A stretch of 64,000 bases of DNA from Escherichia coli (lineage in GTDB: Bacteria; Pseudomonadota; Gammaproteobacteria; Enterobacterales; Enterobacteriaceae): the NCBI RefSeq assembly GCF_045037415.1, contig NZ_CP173438.1; one strand, given 5' to 3'. A program made the translations under genes and the position numbers. The notes below the pieces were generated by a model. That model searched no databases. It saw only the letters and a program-made list of their open reading frames with translations, and was not told where the DNA came from. This document shows positions 3,217 to 44,506 of this stretch, in pieces. How positions within the stretch are numbered: the first letter of the stretch is position 1; every line of letters starts with the position of its first letter.

Positions 3217-3873
3217 TCAGAAAATATCCCACCTGGCATCAACCACAACACCTACTATTTCGCAATCATTGTCCATTTCTATGATTGGATATTGTGGATT
3301 AAGGGGCTTTAGAAACGCCTTTCCCATGTCAGAAATATATTTTTTGAATGTTGCTTCATTGGTAGATTTTTTTCTGGCGATGACGTAACACCCTGAAAAA
3401 ACTTCTTTATCTGGGTTGACAAGGATCGACATTCCTTCAGGAAATGTTATTCCTACGGGCGAAGTCATTGAGTCTCCGTGCACTTCCAGCCAGAACCCCC
3501 TCTCACCAGCGTATTTTACAGAATGCCTCCAATTATCCTGATCATACATGTTGTAGTCATCACCAGAAGTTGCGAATAATCCTGCCTGAACCCAGTTAAT
3601 TACAGGGTAAGAGTGTGCTGTGTCTCTCTGTGGGCAGCTCTTAACATTATTTTCCCAATGCTTATCTTTTTCATCTCCGTTCTGAAGCCACTGCGGTGAA
3701 CACCGCAGTGCAGCTGCAACTTTAAAAAGGGTGTCACCGTTGAAACTTTTTGTAAGGCCTTGCTCGGCTTTACTGATTGCAACTCTGGTGATCCCAGCTT
3801 TTTTAGCCAACGCATCTTGTGTTAACCCAGCTTTTTGCCGTGCGTTGATGAGACGTTCACCTAAAGACTTCAT
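3217..3873 (-). CDS. cI: CI-type prophage repressor (HTH + LexA-like S24 autopeptidase domain)
   Basis: MKSLGERLINARQKAGLTQDALAKKAG HTH; Ala-Gly cleavage site (VQAGLF); GDSM serine and FKKY lysine; C-terminus FLKPLNPQYPII closely resembles lambda CI; GAGGAG RBS before ATG at 3873. Confidence 0.9.
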   Translation of the reverse strand: MKSLGERLINARQKAGLTQDALAKKAGITRVAISKAEQGLTKSFNGDTLFKVAAALRCSPQWLQNGDEKDKHWENNVKSCPQRDTAHSYPVINWVQAGLFATSGDDYNMYDQDNWRHSVKYAGERGFWLEVHGDSMTSPVGITFPEGMSILVNPDKEVFSGCYVIARKKSTNEATFKKYISDMGKAFLKPLNPQYPIIEMDNDCEIVGVVVDARWDIF

Positions 3874-3889
3874 TTTTCTTCTCCTCTCA

Positions 3890-3975
3890 TGGCTGTTGAT
3901 ACTAAAGTAACAGAATTTCTTGATACTTTGGATTCCTGTGGTTAACATCGTTGAATAACAAAGTATCTGGTGTGA
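3890..3975. promoter_or_regulatory. candidate right operator/promoter region (oR-like)
   Basis: Three copies of GATACT(A/T)(A/T)(A/T)G or its complement (3899-3907, 3923-3931, 3960-3968) in the divergent region between cI and the rightward genes. Confidence 0.35.
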
Positions 3976-3984
3976 GACTAAAGA

Positions 3985-4212
3985 ATGACCCTTTATGAAA
4001 TATTAAAAATTCAATTTAAAACCAATGCCGCTATTGGTCGCAGGTTCCCAAAGAAAGGAAGGCCTCGTGGCAGTCAAGGTGTTGGAAAGTGGAAAACGCG
4101 AGGTGTTCCGGAGGATGTTGCCATTCTTTGTCATCTGGATCCGAGCATTCCATATACACACCCAAGTCTAGCGAATACAGAAGATGACAAGCCCACAGGA
4201 GACCAACAATGA
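3985..4212 (+). CDS. small basic protein in the Cro position (not recognisably Cro)
   Basis: 75-aa ORF starting right after the operator repeats; very basic (GRRFPKKGRPRGSQGVGKWKTRG); no HTH recognised; stop overlaps next start. Confidence 0.3.
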   Translation: MTLYEILKIQFKTNAAIGRRFPKKGRPRGSQGVGKWKTRGVPEDVAILCHLDPSIPYTHPSLANTEDDKPTGDQQ

Positions 4213-4916
4213 ACACCGCAATTTTTAACGGCAAAGCATCCATGACCAGCGTTGAGATCGCAGAGCTGGTGGGAAGCCGACCAGATAGTGTTAAGAGAAC
4301 TATTGAAACACTGGCTAAAAAGGGAATCATCCAATTTCCACAGACTGTGGAAATTGAGAATAAACAATCACTTGGGCCTCGCCGATTTTCTAGCGCGTAT
4401 GTATTCGAAGGTGAACGAGGTAAGCGCGACAGCATCATTGTCGTCGCACAGCTCTGTCCTGAATTCACAGCTCGCCTGGTAGATCGCTGGCGCGAACTGG
4501 AAGAACAGATCCGTAAGCCAATGAGCGAAATCGAAATGGTTGCCGCGATGGCTCTTGAAGCCGTTCGCCAACAGAAACGGATCACTCAGGTGGAAGAAAA
4601 AGTCAGCCACGTTGCTGAAACAGTCGAGCAAATTAAAAAGGGCACTATTCGTGAGGGCTATGCCGGATATCGCCAACTGAAAGCAAAAACCGGTTTGTCA
4701 GATGATAAATGCCGCAATCTGGTGAACGCCTATCAAATTCCTACAGACACACATGAGTTCATGACGCCGGACGGATTGTTGTCACGTCGCGCAATTGTTG
4801 CTGTGGAACCGTTTATGGCTGCTTTTTATCGGGTTATGGAGGAAGCAGAACCGCGAGGGACTCGCTGGTATCACCCGAAAATGGGGTTATTTCAGGTTAT
4901 TGGTTGGCAGCGGTGA
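4209..4916 (+). CDS. phage regulatory protein, Rha-like N-terminal region
   Basis: 235-aa ORF; MTSVEIAELVGSRPDSVKRTIETLAKKG resembles the Rha-domain HTH pattern seen in the ORF at 5685. Confidence 0.45.
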   Translation: MNTAIFNGKASMTSVEIAELVGSRPDSVKRTIETLAKKGIIQFPQTVEIENKQSLGPRRFSSAYVFEGERGKRDSIIVVAQLCPEFTARLVDRWRELEEQIRKPMSEIEMVAAMALEAVRQQKRITQVEEKVSHVAETVEQIKKGTIREGYAGYRQLKAKTGLSDDKCRNLVNAYQIPTDTHEFMTPDGLLSRRAIVAVEPFMAAFYRVMEEAEPRGTRWYHPKMGLFQVIGWQR

Positions 4917-5024
4917 AAAAAAGCCGGGAGTAACCCGGCTCACTCAACATCAATAACGGGGAGCTGTTTCGCATAAAACGGCTCCGAAACATCCAAGAAC
5001 AGTTCTAAAGATATCAGCAGCTAT

Positions 5025-5688
5025 ATGATCATTTCAAGACCAAATATTGATTCTGCAATTTCGGGACGTTACACTGTCTCCGCACCTTATAAAGCGGGTG
5101 CCGGGATTGGCGTCCTGAAATTGTCAACGGCGATGTATGACGCGCCAGCGTCTTTTTTATCGTCCGCATTTGCTCACATCCAGATTATGGTGGGCTGGGC
5201 GGGGGCACCGAAAGGTGCGCCGGTTCTCCGTTGACGCCGGTTACGCCAACCCCGTCCAGTTCACCACCAGTGAAATTGGCGTTTCCGGTGGTGGAAGTTT
5301 TTCACTGTCAACGGAGGCTGCCATCATGGCTACTGTCCTAACTTCCCCATTCCTAAAAATCGAAGTCGTCAACGGCAAGGCCGTTATTTTCTCCCTGCAT
5401 GTTGCCTGCCATTTCAAGCGCATGCACCAGAACATCGTTGACAAAATCGAGTATCTGAACTGCTCACGCGAGTTTTTTACCCGCAATTTCATACCGGGTA
5501 CTTATCACATCTACGGTGACTCCCTGCGTGGTTATTACATCACCCTTGATGGTCTGATGATGCTTCAGCTTGGGTTAAGTCTGCGCACAATGCGGTACTA
5601 CGAGAGCTGTATTGAAGCATTCCATGAGGCTGAAACCGTCCAGGGTCACTCCGCGTTCCGTCGTAATCAACGGGAGGTGCACCTATGA
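5025..5688 (+). pseudogene. Rha-family paralog, copy A, frameshifted between N-terminal extension and Rha domain
   Basis: 5025..5234 and 5137..5688 are in different frames; together they parallel the single 283-aa ORF at 5685 (shared IDSAI.GRYT..APYKAGAG start, Rha-like VNGKAVIFSLHVACHFKRMHQNIVDKI body); net +1 indel ~5180-5235. Confidence 0.4.
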
Positions 5689-6536
5689 TCCGCCACCAGC
5701 ATATTGATTCTGCAATTCCGGGACGTTACACTGCTCAGGCACCTTATAAAGCGGGTGCCGGGCGTGGAAACCCGAAATTCAATATAGAGCACAACCGCGC
5801 TCATGCGGTTTTTTCGTGTCATGAGCATCGTTACACCCAAATTATGGTGGGGCGTGCAGGGCCAACTTCGGTTGGGCCGGGTTCTATGTTGACCGGTATT
5901 TCCACCCCTGTACGTCTCACCACCTATATGGTCGTGGAAAGCCTTGGTGGTGAGTTCATTGAATTCAACATAGGGGCTGTCACCATGACTACTCTCCCAA
6001 CCCAATCTCACCCTGAAATCACGATTATCAATGGTCGCGTTGTCACCACATCTCTTGCAGTAGCTAATTACTTTACTAAACGGCATGAGCGGGTTTTAGA
6101 TAGAATTAGAAACCTCGAATGTTCCGCTGAATTTACTGAACACAATTTTGTGTTAAGTGAATACACCGACGCATCAGGCCGCAAACTCCCTTGTTACCAA
6201 ATCACCCGCGACGGTTTTGCGTTTCTTGCCATGGGCTTCACTGGTAAACGTGCTGCCCAGTTCAAAGAGGCATACATCAACGCCTTTAACCTGATGGAGA
6301 AGAGTTTATCAGGTGCCGATGCGTCTGATATGTCAGCTGTCGCACGAAACGCCAGAGGCGTATACCTGCATTTGCGTGAAATCCATCAAATCTGGACAAG
6401 CCAGCTTTATCCAATGCTTAAGGCCGTTGAATCTCCGCTGGCTAGCAAACTGTACGACCGTGTTGGTGATGCTGTTTTTGGCGCTGCACTTGTTGATTCC
6501 AGGCTGAATGGTTCTGACAAGGAGGTTCGCCCATGA
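5685..6536 (+). CDS. phage regulatory protein Rha (copy B)
   Basis: INGRVVTTSLAVANYFTKRHERVLDRIRNLECSAEF...YQITRDGFAFLAMGFTGKRAAQFKEAYINAFNLME matches the Rha-domain pattern; GGAGGTG RBS before ATG; the ~100-aa N-terminal extension may not be coding. Confidence 0.65.
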   Translation: MIRHQHIDSAIPGRYTAQAPYKAGAGRGNPKFNIEHNRAHAVFSCHEHRYTQIMVGRAGPTSVGPGSMLTGISTPVRLTTYMVVESLGGEFIEFNIGAVTMTTLPTQSHPEITIINGRVVTTSLAVANYFTKRHERVLDRIRNLECSAEFTEHNFVLSEYTDASGRKLPCYQITRDGFAFLAMGFTGKRAAQFKEAYINAFNLMEKSLSGADASDMSAVARNARGVYLHLREIHQIWTSQLYPMLKAVESPLASKLYDRVGDAVFGAALVDSRLNGSDKEVRP

Positions 6537-6727
6537 TTAGTTACGAAATCATCATCTCCACTACGGAATACAGAAACGATGTATCAGTTCGCACGGATGT
6601 ATCTGTCTGGCACCGTCGCTATAAATCCAGAAAAACAGCGGAACTGAAAGCGGCAGAGATGTGTGAAACCATCTCAATGAAAGGTAGCCCGGTTAAATAC
6701 GTAACTACGGCGGAGGTGCGTCCATGA
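6533..6727 (+). CDS. hypothetical protein (64 aa)
   Basis: ATGA stop/start overlap with previous gene; part of tightly coupled rightward early operon. Confidence 0.4.
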   Translation: MISYEIIISTTEYRNDVSVRTDVSVWHRRYKSRKTAELKAAEMCETISMKGSPVKYVTTAEVRP

Positions 6728-6948
6728 TCCGCCACATCGTTAATTCCCTGTATCACCGATACAACCGTTGCCCCCGTGTGGGGCAGTGGTTCGCCACCAG
6801 CAACGGTCACGTTCTGCGGGTTTGCCTAGTCAACGCTGAAAGCCAGAAAGTCGTGTGCGAACTACAGGGGCGTAGCTACACCATCAGTTACCCTCTGGCG
6901 GTATTTCTGTCTGGAAAAATGTTTAAGCGTCTGGGAGGTGTGGCGTGA
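6724..6948 (+). CDS. hypothetical protein (74 aa)
   Basis: Start context GGAGGTGCGTCCATGATCCGCCAC repeats the junction in front of the 5685 ORF; overlaps neighbours by 4 nt. Confidence 0.4.
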   Translation: MIRHIVNSLYHRYNRCPRVGQWFATSNGHVLRVCLVNAESQKVVCELQGRSYTISYPLAVFLSGKMFKRLGGVA

Positions 6949-7244
6949 ACTGTTTTCAGTTTGTGTGCGGATGTGCTTTCGATAACCCGATTCAGCGCCT
7001 AATTATGTTGCGTGTTTTGATGTCGGGTTCTTCAGACGGTGAAGGCGAGAGAGTTATTGATCATCAGGTGCTTGCTGATTTCTGCTGTTGTTCTAAGCAA
7101 GCGATATTCAGGGAAACCCTGGCACTGGAAAGAGCTGGTTATCTTCATATCCGAAAAATTGCAACGCTTACTATTGATGCAAAAGCCAGACTACAACCTG
7201 CGCGTGGCTACACAATTCTCATGCCGCGGAAGGAGGTTGTATGA
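6945..7244 (+). CDS. hypothetical protein (99 aa), possible DNA-binding
   Basis: Translationally coupled ORF directly upstream of replication gene. Confidence 0.4.
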   Translation: MNCFQFVCGCAFDNPIQRLIMLRVLMSGSSDGEGERVIDHQVLADFCCCSKQAIFRETLALERAGYLHIRKIATLTIDAKARLQPARGYTILMPRKEVV

Positions 7245-27470: not shown

Positions 27471-27816
27471 TTTTCAGAATGCCTTTGATGCTGCCCTCGC
27501 CGGGGTAGACAGTACGATCGTTGAAGTGATGGGACTCTGTGCGCAGTTCACCTCGGGGGCACAGTGTGGCAGCGAAGTTCAGGGGGTTTTTGACGATCCG
27601 GAGTCGCTGGGGGTTGCCGGTGGCGGGGTCCGTATTGAAGGAAGCTGCCCGTCATTATTTGTGCGGACGGATACGGTTCGTGCCGTGCGGCGTGGTGACA
27701 CGCTGACCATTAATGGTGAGACATTCTGGGTGGATCGTGTTTCTCCGGATGACGGGGGCAGCTGTTATCTCTGGCTCAACCGTGGGCAACCACCCGCAGT
27801 TAACCGGCGACGATAA
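27463..27816 (+). CDS. FII: head-tail connector protein FII
   Basis: GVFDDPE...SLFVRTD.VR..RRGDTLTI....FWVDRVSPDDGGSC.LWL.RG.PPAVNRRR matches lambda FII. Confidence 0.85.
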   Translation: MRDFQNAFDAALAGVDSTIVEVMGLCAQFTSGAQCGSEVQGVFDDPESLGVAGGGVRIEGSCPSLFVRTDTVRAVRRGDTLTINGETFWVDRVSPDDGGSCYLWLNRGQPPAVNRRR

Positions 27817-27830
27817 ACGCAGGGTGAATT

Positions 27831-28406
27831 ATGGCGATAAAAGGGCTTGATCAGGCGATTGACAATCTGAGCCGGGTTCGTAAAAACGCCATTCCGGCTG
27901 CTTCTGCAATGACCATTAACCGCGTGGCCATAACGGCGATTAATCAGTCTTCGTCACAGGTTGCCCGGGAAACCAGGGTGAGACGGAAACTGGTAAAGGA
28001 ACGGTCCAGACTGAAACGGGCGACGGTCAGAAATCCGAATGCCAGAATTATCGTTAACCGCGGTGATCTCCCTGTGATTAAGCTGGGGATCAGAATGCTG
28101 GGGCGTCGTCCGAACAGCATACTCAAAGCCGGTCAGCATCGTTATCAGCGGGCATTTATCCAGCGATTAAATAATGGGCGCTGGCATGTTATGCAACGTC
28201 TTCCCCAGGCCAGATATGAGGAGGGCAATGACGACAAGGGAAGGAAAAAGCGTAATCGCCTTCCCATTCAGGTGGTGAAAATCCCGATGGCGGCCCCACT
28301 GAAACAGGCATTTGATGAGAATGTTGACCGTATCCGGCGTGAACGCCTGCCTAAAGAACTGGCATACGCGCTGAAACAACAACTGAGGATTGCGATAAAA
28401 CGATGA
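27831..28406 (+). CDS. Z: tail completion protein Z
   Basis: 191 aa; gene order and lambda gpZ-like sequence. Confidence 0.85.
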   Translation: MAIKGLDQAIDNLSRVRKNAIPAASAMTINRVAITAINQSSSQVARETRVRRKLVKERSRLKRATVRNPNARIIVNRGDLPVIKLGIRMLGRRPNSILKAGQHRYQRAFIQRLNNGRWHVMQRLPQARYEEGNDDKGRKKRNRLPIQVVKIPMAAPLKQAFDENVDRIRRERLPKELAYALKQQLRIAIKR

Positions 28407-43915: not shown

Positions 43916-44506
43916 GTGAACATGGATTTCAGAATGAGTGAACAACCACGGACCATAACAATTTATAATCTGCTGGCCGGAACTAATGAATTTATTGGTG
44001 AAGGTGACGCATACATTCCGCCTCATACAGGTCTGCCAGCAAACAGTACCGATATTGCACCGCCAGATATTCCGGCTGGTTTCGTGGCTGTTTTCAACAG
44101 TGATGAGTCATCGTGGCATCTCGTTGAAGATCATCGGGGTAAAACGGTTTATGACGTGGCTTCCGGCGACGCGTTATTTATTTCTGAACTCGGCTCATTA
44201 CCGGAAAATGTCACCTGGTTATCCCCGGAAGGGGAGTTTCAGAAGTGGAACGGCACAGCCTGGGTGAAGGATACGGAAGCAGAAAAACTGTTCCGGATCC
44301 GGGAGGCGGAAGAAACAAAAAACAGCCTGATGCAGGTAGCCAGTGAGCATATAGCGCCGCTTCAGGATGCTGTGGATCTGGAGATCGCAACGGAGAAAGA
44401 AACCTTGTTGCTGGAAGCCTGGAAAAAGTATCGGGTGTTGCTGAACCGTGTTGATACATCAACTGCACCTGATATTGAGTGGCCTGCGGTCCCTGTTATG
44501 GAGTAA
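43916..44506 (+). CDS. tfa: tail fibre assembly chaperone Tfa
   Basis: 196 aa; Tfa-like N-terminal [30 protein letters not shown] and conserved C-terminus. Confidence 0.85.

Follow-up and report, generated by a model that had tools for sequence, protein, structure and literature searches.

A tandem pair of probable IsrK-C4 antisense RNA modules, each preceding a putative antirepressor gene, in an Escherichia coli lambdoid prophage

A stretch of 64,000 nucleotides from an Escherichia coli contig (NZ_CP173438.1; hereafter "the window"), whose content is that of an E. coli lambdoid prophage, contains two consecutive units at positions 5025-5688 (unit A) and 5685-6536 (unit B), each consisting of a leader followed by a coding region for a Rha domain, and the question raised by this locus is what the leader encodes. 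Unit B forms, as stated in a preliminary description of the locus, one frame of 283 amino acids (5685-6536, + strand). This frame is annotated as a single protein with Phage_ASH and Phage_pRha domains, and RefSeq records unit A as an 'ash family protein, frameshifted'. We found that the first 100 codons of the 283-amino-acid frame correspond to the DNA of a promoter-like site and of two small RNAs, IsrK and C4. It is very probable that the locus comprises two complete tandem IsrK-C4 antisense RNA modules, each governing a Rha-domain putative antirepressor.

The two units begin with a near-identical segment, as had been described, which spans 79 nt at 85% identity (5044-5122 vs 5701-5779; start-to-start distance 657 nt), and a second repeat block is found at 5176-5223 and 5833-5880 (71% identity). 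The whole window was scanned with Rfam at the curated gathering scores (50, 45, and 46.7 bits for isrK, C4, and c4-a1b1, respectively). Full-length matches to both isrK (RF01394) and C4 (RF01695) were obtained in each unit on the + strand, with E-values of 1e-14 to 1e-10 over the 64 kb, far beyond chance. The IsrK small RNAs were located at 5082-5158 (IsrK-A, 62.2 bits) and 5739-5815 (IsrK-B, 61.6 bits), and the C4 antisense RNAs at 5183-5271 (C4-A, 77.7 bits) and 5840-5927 (C4-B, 82.4 bits), the latter two covering model positions 1-87. The GCACC...GGTGC hairpin noticed earlier in the repeat is the first helix of the Rfam isrK model, and the short GC stem with its T-run corresponds to terminator-like sites, with stems at 5139-5152 (followed by T6) and 5793-5810 (followed by T4) in units A and B, respectively. 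Another C4-like site, at 27561-27910, was picked up by a regular expression and discarded, being unsupported by Rfam or by the nhmmer profile described below.

The secondary structures were in agreement with these assignments. Each IsrK element showed two 5' hairpins with a sequence termed a1 in the second loop, a sequence termed b1 just 3' of it, and the intrinsic terminator. IsrK-A, a c4-a1b1 element plus terminator, carries a1 TTGGCGT (5107-5113) and b1 TGTCAACGG (5122-5130), and IsrK-B carries a1 GTGGAAA (5764-5770) and b1 TCAATATAGAGC (5779-5790). Each C4 element showed the long outer helix enclosing two hairpins, with covariation support: among the 27 stem pairs across 32 sequences, 13 were changed on both sides and almost no broken cells were observed. 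The IsrK stems comprised 13 pairs, 6 of them with compensatory changes, and all 6 pairs of hairpin 1 were compensated.

Pairing partners of C4 were sought as ungapped complementarity restricted to its unpaired segments, as defined by the Rfam structure; this search replaced duplex folding of the whole C4 against the whole target, which forced full-length duplexes and gave no discrimination. The C4-A RNA presents a b' loop, TCTCCGTTGACG (5225-5236), and an a' sequence, ACGCCAA (5243-5249); the corresponding segments of C4-B are TTCTATGTTGA (5882-5892) and TTTCCAC (5899-5905). The target region of unit A (5276-5317, + strand) comprises a2 (TTGGCGT, 5276-5282) and b2 (TGTCAACGGAGG, 5306-5317), the latter covering the Shine-Dalgarno (SD) sequence GGAGG located 8 nt before the ATG at 5326. 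That of unit B (5934-5975, + strand) comprises a2 (GTGGAAA, 5934-5940) and b2 (TCAACATAGGG, 5965-5975), which lies over the SD region 10 nt before the ATG at 5985. In both units, a' can form 7 Watson-Crick pairs with a1 and likewise with a2. The b'-b2 matches extend over 12 pairs in unit A (10 Watson-Crick and 2 G-U) and 11 pairs in unit B (9 Watson-Crick), and the b'-b1 matches over 9 and 12 bp, respectively.

The a sequences of the two units are unrelated (TTGGCGT vs GTGGAAA) and the b sequences also differ (GTCAACGGAG vs TCAACATAGG); therefore, the units should act as orthogonal switches, as in the heteroimmune phages P1 and P7. Cross-unit matches were shorter than those within a unit, with the exception of a 9-bp match between the a' region of C4-B and positions 5290-5298 of unit A (GGTGGAAGT, after C4), which is a possible site of one-way cross-talk. 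A GGTGGTG motif was observed 3' of a2 in all units (5286-5296 and 5945-5953 in the window). As a repeat of the 5' strand of the outer C4 helix, it could pair with the CACCACC of the 3' strand as an alternative structure, which may match the two conformers described for Gifsy-1.

The comparison was extended to 80 viral loci that were fetched with the unit B protein (AntB, see below) as the sole query, blind to the leader. Reference phages were added, and related units were located using an nhmmer profile and Rfam. A second sample, comprising 59 unique modules, was anchored on the C4 outer stem alone. The related units share kinship and recombine, and the counts given here and below overstate their independence. 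C4 was present once in 58 of the 80 viral loci, twice in 14, and three times in 4, always within 1.5 kb of an AntB homolog. In 98 of 100 related units, a' matched a1 and a2 (6-8 bp) and b' matched b1 (9-12 bp) and b2 (10-13 bp). The 100 units represent 7 a-types and 9 b-types in 19 combinations, and the sequences change together at all three sites. This three-site co-variation provides strong comparative evidence that the pairings are functional.

The open reading frames (ORFs) after b2 were designated antA (5326-5688, + strand, 120 amino acids) and antB (5985-6536, + strand, 183 amino acids), both encoding Rha-domain putative antirepressors. Both products belong to Pfam Phage_pRha (PF09669), AntA with an E-value of 9.8e-7 and AntB with 1.8e-30, and their matches among PHROGs were 995 (E 1.6e-55) and 821 (E 2e-105), respectively. 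They are paralogs with 35% identity (E 4e-20). For NCBIfam TIGR02681, whose cut-off is 45.95 bits, the 283-amino-acid ORF passed at 100 bits and the AntA frame remained below at 36.3 bits. The Rha protein itself most likely starts at the internal ATG, which is under the control of the antisense RNA.

Each isrK match is preceded by a promoter-like site on the + strand. In unit A (5047-5075), a -35 hexamer TTGATT (5047-5052) and a -10 hexamer TACACT (5070-5075) are separated by a 17-nt spacer, with a predicted start at G5082, and unit B (5704-5732) has the same hexamers (5704-5709 and 5727-5732) and spacer, with a predicted start at G5739. The TACACT hexamers end six bases upstream of the isrK matches, position 1 of the Rfam isrK model being 5082 in unit A, and divergent relatives keep hexamers at the 17-nt spacing (TTGACA-17-CACACT and TTGATC-17-TATGCT). 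The conserved hexamers at this spacing, together with the matching geometry of the experimentally studied Gifsy-1 promoter PisrK, suggest that these sites are the IsrK promoters.

A mechanism can be proposed from these elements. Transcription from a constitutive-looking sigma-70 promoter would start at G5082 or G5739, and most transcripts would end at the intrinsic terminator, as in Gifsy-1, yielding an IsrK RNA of ~77 nt that carries a1 and b1. Read-through transcripts would contain C4. In P1, C4 is cut from a longer transcript by RNase P, and the read-through transcripts may be processed likewise. The a' and b' segments of C4 are complementary to a2 and b2 just downstream, and pairing with them would repress, by analogy with P1; b2 covers the SD sequence of the Rha ORF, so translation would be blocked when it is paired. 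IsrK, with its a1 and b1 sequences, would act as a competitor for C4 or for the corresponding region of the mRNA and turn translation on, as suggested by Gifsy-1 and by what has been proposed for P1.

The modules found here belong to a known kind of system, because IsrK-C4 has already been described for P1/P7, P4, and Gifsy-1. The annotated record of P1 immI has the same order (a1, b1, c4, a2, b2, and the first ORF), closely similar spacing, and a b2 over the ribosome-binding site, and a and b sequences that differ by phage give P1 and P7 their heteroimmunity. Unlike immI, the units have no icd or P1-type ant (ant1/ant2), a Rha-domain ORF occupying the icd position. They also carry an intrinsic terminator after b1 (the IsrK form) and are present in two copies within a lambdoid early operon, inside an open frame that P1 lacks. 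By published descriptions, P4 immunity (seqA, CI RNA, and seqC) is similar in that an RNA processed from the leader pairs with sites up- and downstream of itself, but its outcome is premature transcription termination of the replication operon and not antirepressor control. IsrK and C4 have been equated with seqA and CI RNA of P4, and IsrK-C4 systems have been noted in lambdoid prophages (Barquist et al. 2013, PMC3632133). The C4 family and the c4-a1b1 motif, in which the second of two hairpins contains a1 and b1 follows immediately 3', were presented by Weinberg et al. 2010 (PMC2864571, supplement).

The isrK-orf45-anrP region of Gifsy-1 contains the same Rfam families (isrK and C4) in the same order and additionally carries c4-a1b1. 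Its PisrK (TTGACA-17-TATATT, 6 nt to +1) has the same geometry as the sites in the window, its IsrK has a terminator with read-through, and an ORF that opens at the C4 AUG extends up to the beginning of the antirepressor gene. A check of the sequences confirmed that the orf45 AUG is the conserved C4 AUG, which corresponds to 5844-5846 in C4-B. According to Hershko-Shalev et al. 2016 (PMC4825925), some isrK transcripts of Gifsy-1 read through the terminator, the 45-codon ORF is translated and is required for translation of the antirepressor, the short IsrK acts in trans on the long transcript, and orf45 is conserved in nucleotides but not in amino acids. Gifsy-1 differs from the present locus in having a single module, beside a Q-like gene, and in having a stop directly upstream of the C4 AUG, so that IsrK lies outside any ORF. 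Moreover, the orf45 stop overlaps the anrP ATG (ATGA), whereas here the frame of unit B enters the Rha ORF and that of unit A ends after 15 codons.

Several observations weigh against two RNA modules governing antirepressors. Promoter function, termination, processing of C4, repression, and the activity of AntA and AntB as antirepressors are all properties that we infer from sequence and from the experiments on P1 and Gifsy-1. AntA and AntB are not homologous to P1 Icd, and the candidate relationship to Gifsy-1 AnrP was rejected, as BLASTP against STM2616 gave E-values of 3.5 for AntB and 0.29 for AntA; neither Pfam nor PHROGs reported an Icd-like or P1 Ant family for the ORF after b2. Because homology to Icd or AnrP is lacking, the term antirepressor is taken from family names only. 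The promoter-like sites match 8 of 12 consensus positions; they are not listed by the promoter scan because its minimum was 9 of 12, and they were retained on comparative grounds only. The matches to Rfam c4-a1b1 (RF03163), at 5069-5121 and 5726-5778, were below the threshold (23.9 and 23.6 vs 46.7 bits; E about 0.005) and overlap isrK. P1 and Gifsy-1 pass this threshold, and in the relatives that were hit, the isrK and c4-a1b1 models overlap on the same element. Finally, the Rha frame is stop-free over the leader of ~290 nt in 50 of 52 unique units, and the indels within the leader are either 3 nt long or a compensated -1/-2 pair.

The stop-free leader frame deserves closer consideration. The other two leader frames contain 18 and 13 distinct stop sites and the Rha frame none; if stops fell with equal likelihood in each frame, the chance of finding 0 of 31 stop sites in one given frame would be about (2/3)^31, a rough value given the partial dependence among sites. 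In 51 of 52 units, the C4 AUG and the Rha AUG are 138 or 141 nt apart. Conserved openness is not expected of a purely non-coding leader, and the explanation must therefore allow translation across the RNA genes. A rival explanation is that the leader is a true N-terminal Phage_ASH domain of an Ash-Rha regulator, intact in unit B and a frameshifted pseudogene in unit A, the RNA matches being incidental. In line with this, Pfam Phage_ASH (PF10554) matches residues 15-111 of the 283-amino-acid ORF (E 3.4e-9), the leader translation is part of PHROGs 821, 995, 3960, and 6928, nearly all units keep the frame open with all 31 stop sites confined to the other two frames, the extended ORF has a good SD-ATG start overlapping the upstream stop, and Phage_ASH is listed among the 'Bro network' domains in the literature.

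It had been proposed that an alignment of related units would reveal a simple N-terminal domain by codon-level conservation of the leader in the absence of structural covariation. The aligned units showed covarying stems and an open frame, and no third-position pattern was seen in the leader; such a test cannot separate protein from RNA, because both signals are present. Diversity by codon position was flat in every leader segment, and the third-position excess of the adjacent Rha coding region (0.255/0.187/0.407) was absent there. In units of four loci (L011, L031, L041, and L080; e.g., L011 1359-1470), a compensated frameshift, -1 in C4 a' and -2 just after C4, alters the peptide (TGFS-PLYVSPP vs TGISTPVRLTT), while the nucleotides, which form the 3' strand of the C4 outer helix, remain unchanged. 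AlphaFold2 with a 32-sequence alignment gave a mean predicted local distance difference test (pLDDT) score of 21-33 per 10-residue block for residues 1-100, with values below 50 through residue 106, and 80-92 for the antB part. By these three measures (codon-position diversity, frameshift, and pLDDT), no amino-acid constraint or predicted fold was seen in the Phage_ASH region, and only the openness of the frame is conserved. Moreover, the 'domain' would contain promoter-like and terminator-like sites, its stems covary, three distant sites co-vary with the C4 loops, and the Rha domain begins precisely at a conserved SD sequence and ATG. The same RNAs occur in P1, Gifsy-1, and a Yersinia phage, where the long frame is missing. 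Overall, we regard a true Phage_ASH domain as very unlikely.

The leader translation matches Phage_ASH ('ash family protein'), after which RefSeq names copy A, and several PHROGs; therefore, in this clade, these families represent the translation of IsrK-C4 DNA, the matched DNA consisting of the IsrK and C4 RNA genes. No description of this equivalence was found in the literature searched, an incomplete library in which absence is weak evidence. When the leader peptide was used as a protein query, all that it retrieved were short or partial 'ash family' proteins, and the search was unusable for a survey of domain architectures.

The preliminary description had posed the leader as either a protein extension or a regulatory RNA element. 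The regulatory RNA was borne out by the promoter-like site, IsrK, C4, and the a2/b2 sequences over the ribosome-binding site, but the two options proved not to be a simple either/or, the frame being kept open. For a leader consisting of an IsrK-C4 module, the frame from the C4 AUG onward, which in unit B runs for 141 nt and then on into the Rha ORF without a change of frame, would fit the known biology of orf45, here fused to the Rha ORF. The upstream half of the frame, comprising the spacer, IsrK, and the promoter-like site up to an SD-ATG that overlaps the stop of the preceding gene, is unexplained by published work. In the second sample, the C4-AUG frame was fused to the downstream gene in 39 of 59 unique modules, 36 of which were also open for at least 150 nt upstream.

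These features leave room for a further reading, to which we give some credence but less than even weight, in which the IsrK-C4 riboregulator is also translated, as an unconstrained spacer, by ribosomes coupled from the upstream gene on early-operon transcripts. Such read-through would suppress the IsrK terminator and Rho-dependent polarity, so that the downstream ant and replication genes would be expressed lytically, and transcripts from the internal promoter would be untranslated up to the C4 AUG and regulated by RNA. This is consistent with a frame that is open and restored after indels without amino-acid constraint, with the fused and upstream-open modules of the second sample, and with an ATGA-coupled SD-ATG start ~20 nt upstream of the -35 hexamer. 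The units are also situated in an almost gap-free + strand operon between the cro-like and replication genes, the stand-alone modules of P1 and Gifsy-1 are not open across the leader, and translation of orf45 across C4 has been shown experimentally in Gifsy-1 (PMC4825925). However, translation upstream of the C4 AUG is only something that we infer, and first-position units, unit A included, start with an ATG lacking an SD sequence, yet keep the frame open in relatives. The counts are inflated by the kinship of the units and by their recombination, and the broken frame of unit A is tolerated in 90 complete genomes. We suggest that translation across the leader matters in modules embedded in operons, one possible reason being that ribosomes would pass through the IsrK terminator and avoid polarity.

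In some relatives, the leader frame extends from 230 to 1,130 nt or more further upstream (L093 883-2031, which is orf44 of phage cdtI; L081 70-2061; and L004 2321-3343), and the phages concerned have annotated 'proteins' of 340-664 amino acids with the RNA genes in mid-frame. The upstream in-frame extensions of L081, cdtI, and a Stx1 phage gave no Pfam domain and weak PHROG hits, which neither support nor exclude an upstream domain.

In unit A, as had been reported, the leader frame (5025-5234) differs from the Rha frame (ATG at 5326, stop at 5688). The b' loop of C4-A contains one extra T within 5223-5226 (GTTCTCC vs GTCTCC or GTTTCC in other units of that b-type), which shifts the long frame, and the frame from the C4 AUG of unit A ends after 15 codons at 5232. 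The extra base occurs in none of 51 other unique related units. Copy A is nevertheless not the plain pseudogene that had been considered: the break affects the long frame alone, and the RNA parts, a/b triads, and 120-amino-acid Rha ORF remain intact. The 120-amino-acid form is the normal length of that Rha subtype and recurs in several other phages. IsrK-A and C4-A are probably still produced from unit A. If activation of the Rha ORF depends on upstream translation, as in Gifsy-1, translational activation of antA may be lost and AntA may be poorly inducible.

How the pair arose can be read from its junctions. The recurring junction sequence GGAGGTGCnnCnATGATCCGCCAC, which had been taken to suggest cassette exchange, was found on the + strand at 5673-5696 and 6712-6735 (previously given as 6711) with 88% identity, and a weaker third copy lies at 6521-6544 (71% identity). 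The first copy contains the SD sequence GGAGGT, the ATG at 5685 overlapping the antA stop (ATGA), and codons for MIRH; the second contains the SD sequence and the ATG (6724) of orf74, whose product also begins with MIRH. The junction is made up of an SD sequence, an overlapping stop/start, and initial codons common to different downstream genes; nothing supported it as a site-specific recombination site, and nothing found at the cassettes pointed to a dedicated recombinase. Single-unit relatives provided support for cassette exchange. A Stx2d phage (L003) has the Roi-like gene, unit A alone, and an orf74 homolog directly after it, and PhiR49_2 (L002) has the Roi-like gene, a single unit, orf64, and orf74. 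The window combines both arrangements, with that of L003 up to ATGATCCGCCAC and that of L002 from its unit on, joined at the shared SD-ATGATCCGCCAC. Comparison with these phages indicates that the most likely origin of the tandem is a homologous recombination event in which two phages carried alternative cassettes at one place, with SD-ATGATCCGCCAC as the exchange point. The units behave as cassettes because of homologous exchange at conserved gene boundaries, and the near-invariant promoter-like segment and the C4 stems may serve as further exchange points.

The stretch 4900-6960 (2,061 bases) is 100% identical to a region in strain A1.S1.126 and was found at a coverage of at least 80% in 90 of 5,426 complete E. 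coli genomes, among them those of strains labelled O25b:H4-ST131. The confinement of the tandem to these genomes, in which the matches are near-identical among the matches listed, and the additional base of unit A, unseen in the other sampled units, would be in keeping with a decaying, presently functionless duplication whose repeats are leftovers of prophage recombination. However, both units keep full-length Rfam matches, terminator-like sites, matched a/b triads, and intact Rha ORFs, and arrays of 2-3 units recur in 18 of the 80 loci, in different combinations, with specificities that differ among members in 18 of 19 arrays. We thus see only a slim chance that the pair is functionless.

The exception among the 19 arrays is L019 (495-2292), a viral contig that, like L082 (47-1447), carries a three-unit IsrK-C4-Rha array. 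The third unit of L019 has IsrK and C4 as in the second and a b2 of another type. This pattern suggests gene conversion between neighbouring array members, which would have left that Rha gene without a matching b'. In the literature searched, tandem IsrK-C4 arrays were nowhere described; the library being incomplete, this absence is weak evidence.

The gene order around the units is a LexA-family repressor gene (3217-3948, minus strand), a small gene at the cro position (3985-4212), a Roi-like gene (4209-4916), the two units, orf64, orf74, and replication genes, and the plus-strand genes show start/stop overlaps almost throughout. The Roi-like gene (+ strand), whose product is predicted to bind DNA, matched PHROG 63 'anti-repressor Ant' (E 3e-46) and is named 'Rha family transcriptional regulator' in RefSeq. 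Its earlier designation as a third Rha-like gene holds in part: a weak Phage_pRha match (E 1.2e-4) was obtained, but the product is only distantly Rha-like and BLASTP found no similarity between it and AntB. It is upstream context, outside the repeat. The hypothetical gene orf64 (6533-6727, + strand; PHROG 7046) travels with the B-type cassette, and its homolog is also located 3' of the single unit in PhiR49_2.

On the minus strand, 4914-5037 contains a promoter-like TTGAAA-18-TATCTT (5037 to 5008), a hairpin, and an intrinsic terminator, GAGCCGGGTTACTCCCGGC followed by T7 (4941 to 4914). The candidate RNA of ~85 nt would end antisense to the 3' end of the Roi-like gene, a position like that of lambda OOP RNA; its fold z-score is -3.5, and it has no Rfam match. 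Elsewhere in the window, a full-length match to Rfam IS009 (RF02111; 218.5 bits, E 2.6e-53) was observed at 44265-44463 on the + strand.

Within a known system, the arrays and the in-frame embedding are worth noting. Annotation pipelines, Pfam, and PHROGs call the leader DNA protein ('ash family protein', 'frameshifted', 'peptidase', or a 283-amino-acid 'Rha family regulator'), whereas it consists of a promoter-like site and two small RNA genes. We tentatively propose, as a generalization that is conceivable rather than established, that across a large clade of lambdoid prophages IsrK-C4 lies in frame inside a translated ORF, that Phage_ASH is the conceptual translation of the two small RNA genes, that selection is for openness and not for amino acids, and that the arrays are combinatorial RNA-gated antirepressors. 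If the open frame does reflect required translation across the small RNA genes, it would be an unusual overlap of coding and RNA function. With at least 19 natural a/b pairing combinations, each accompanied by its matching decoy and target sites, the family cleanly exemplifies the three-way co-evolution of RNA sites and could be a source of orthogonal RNA switches. The prophage is present in widespread human-associated E. coli, where two independently gated putative antirepressors could influence its induction and the cross-talk of co-resident prophages.

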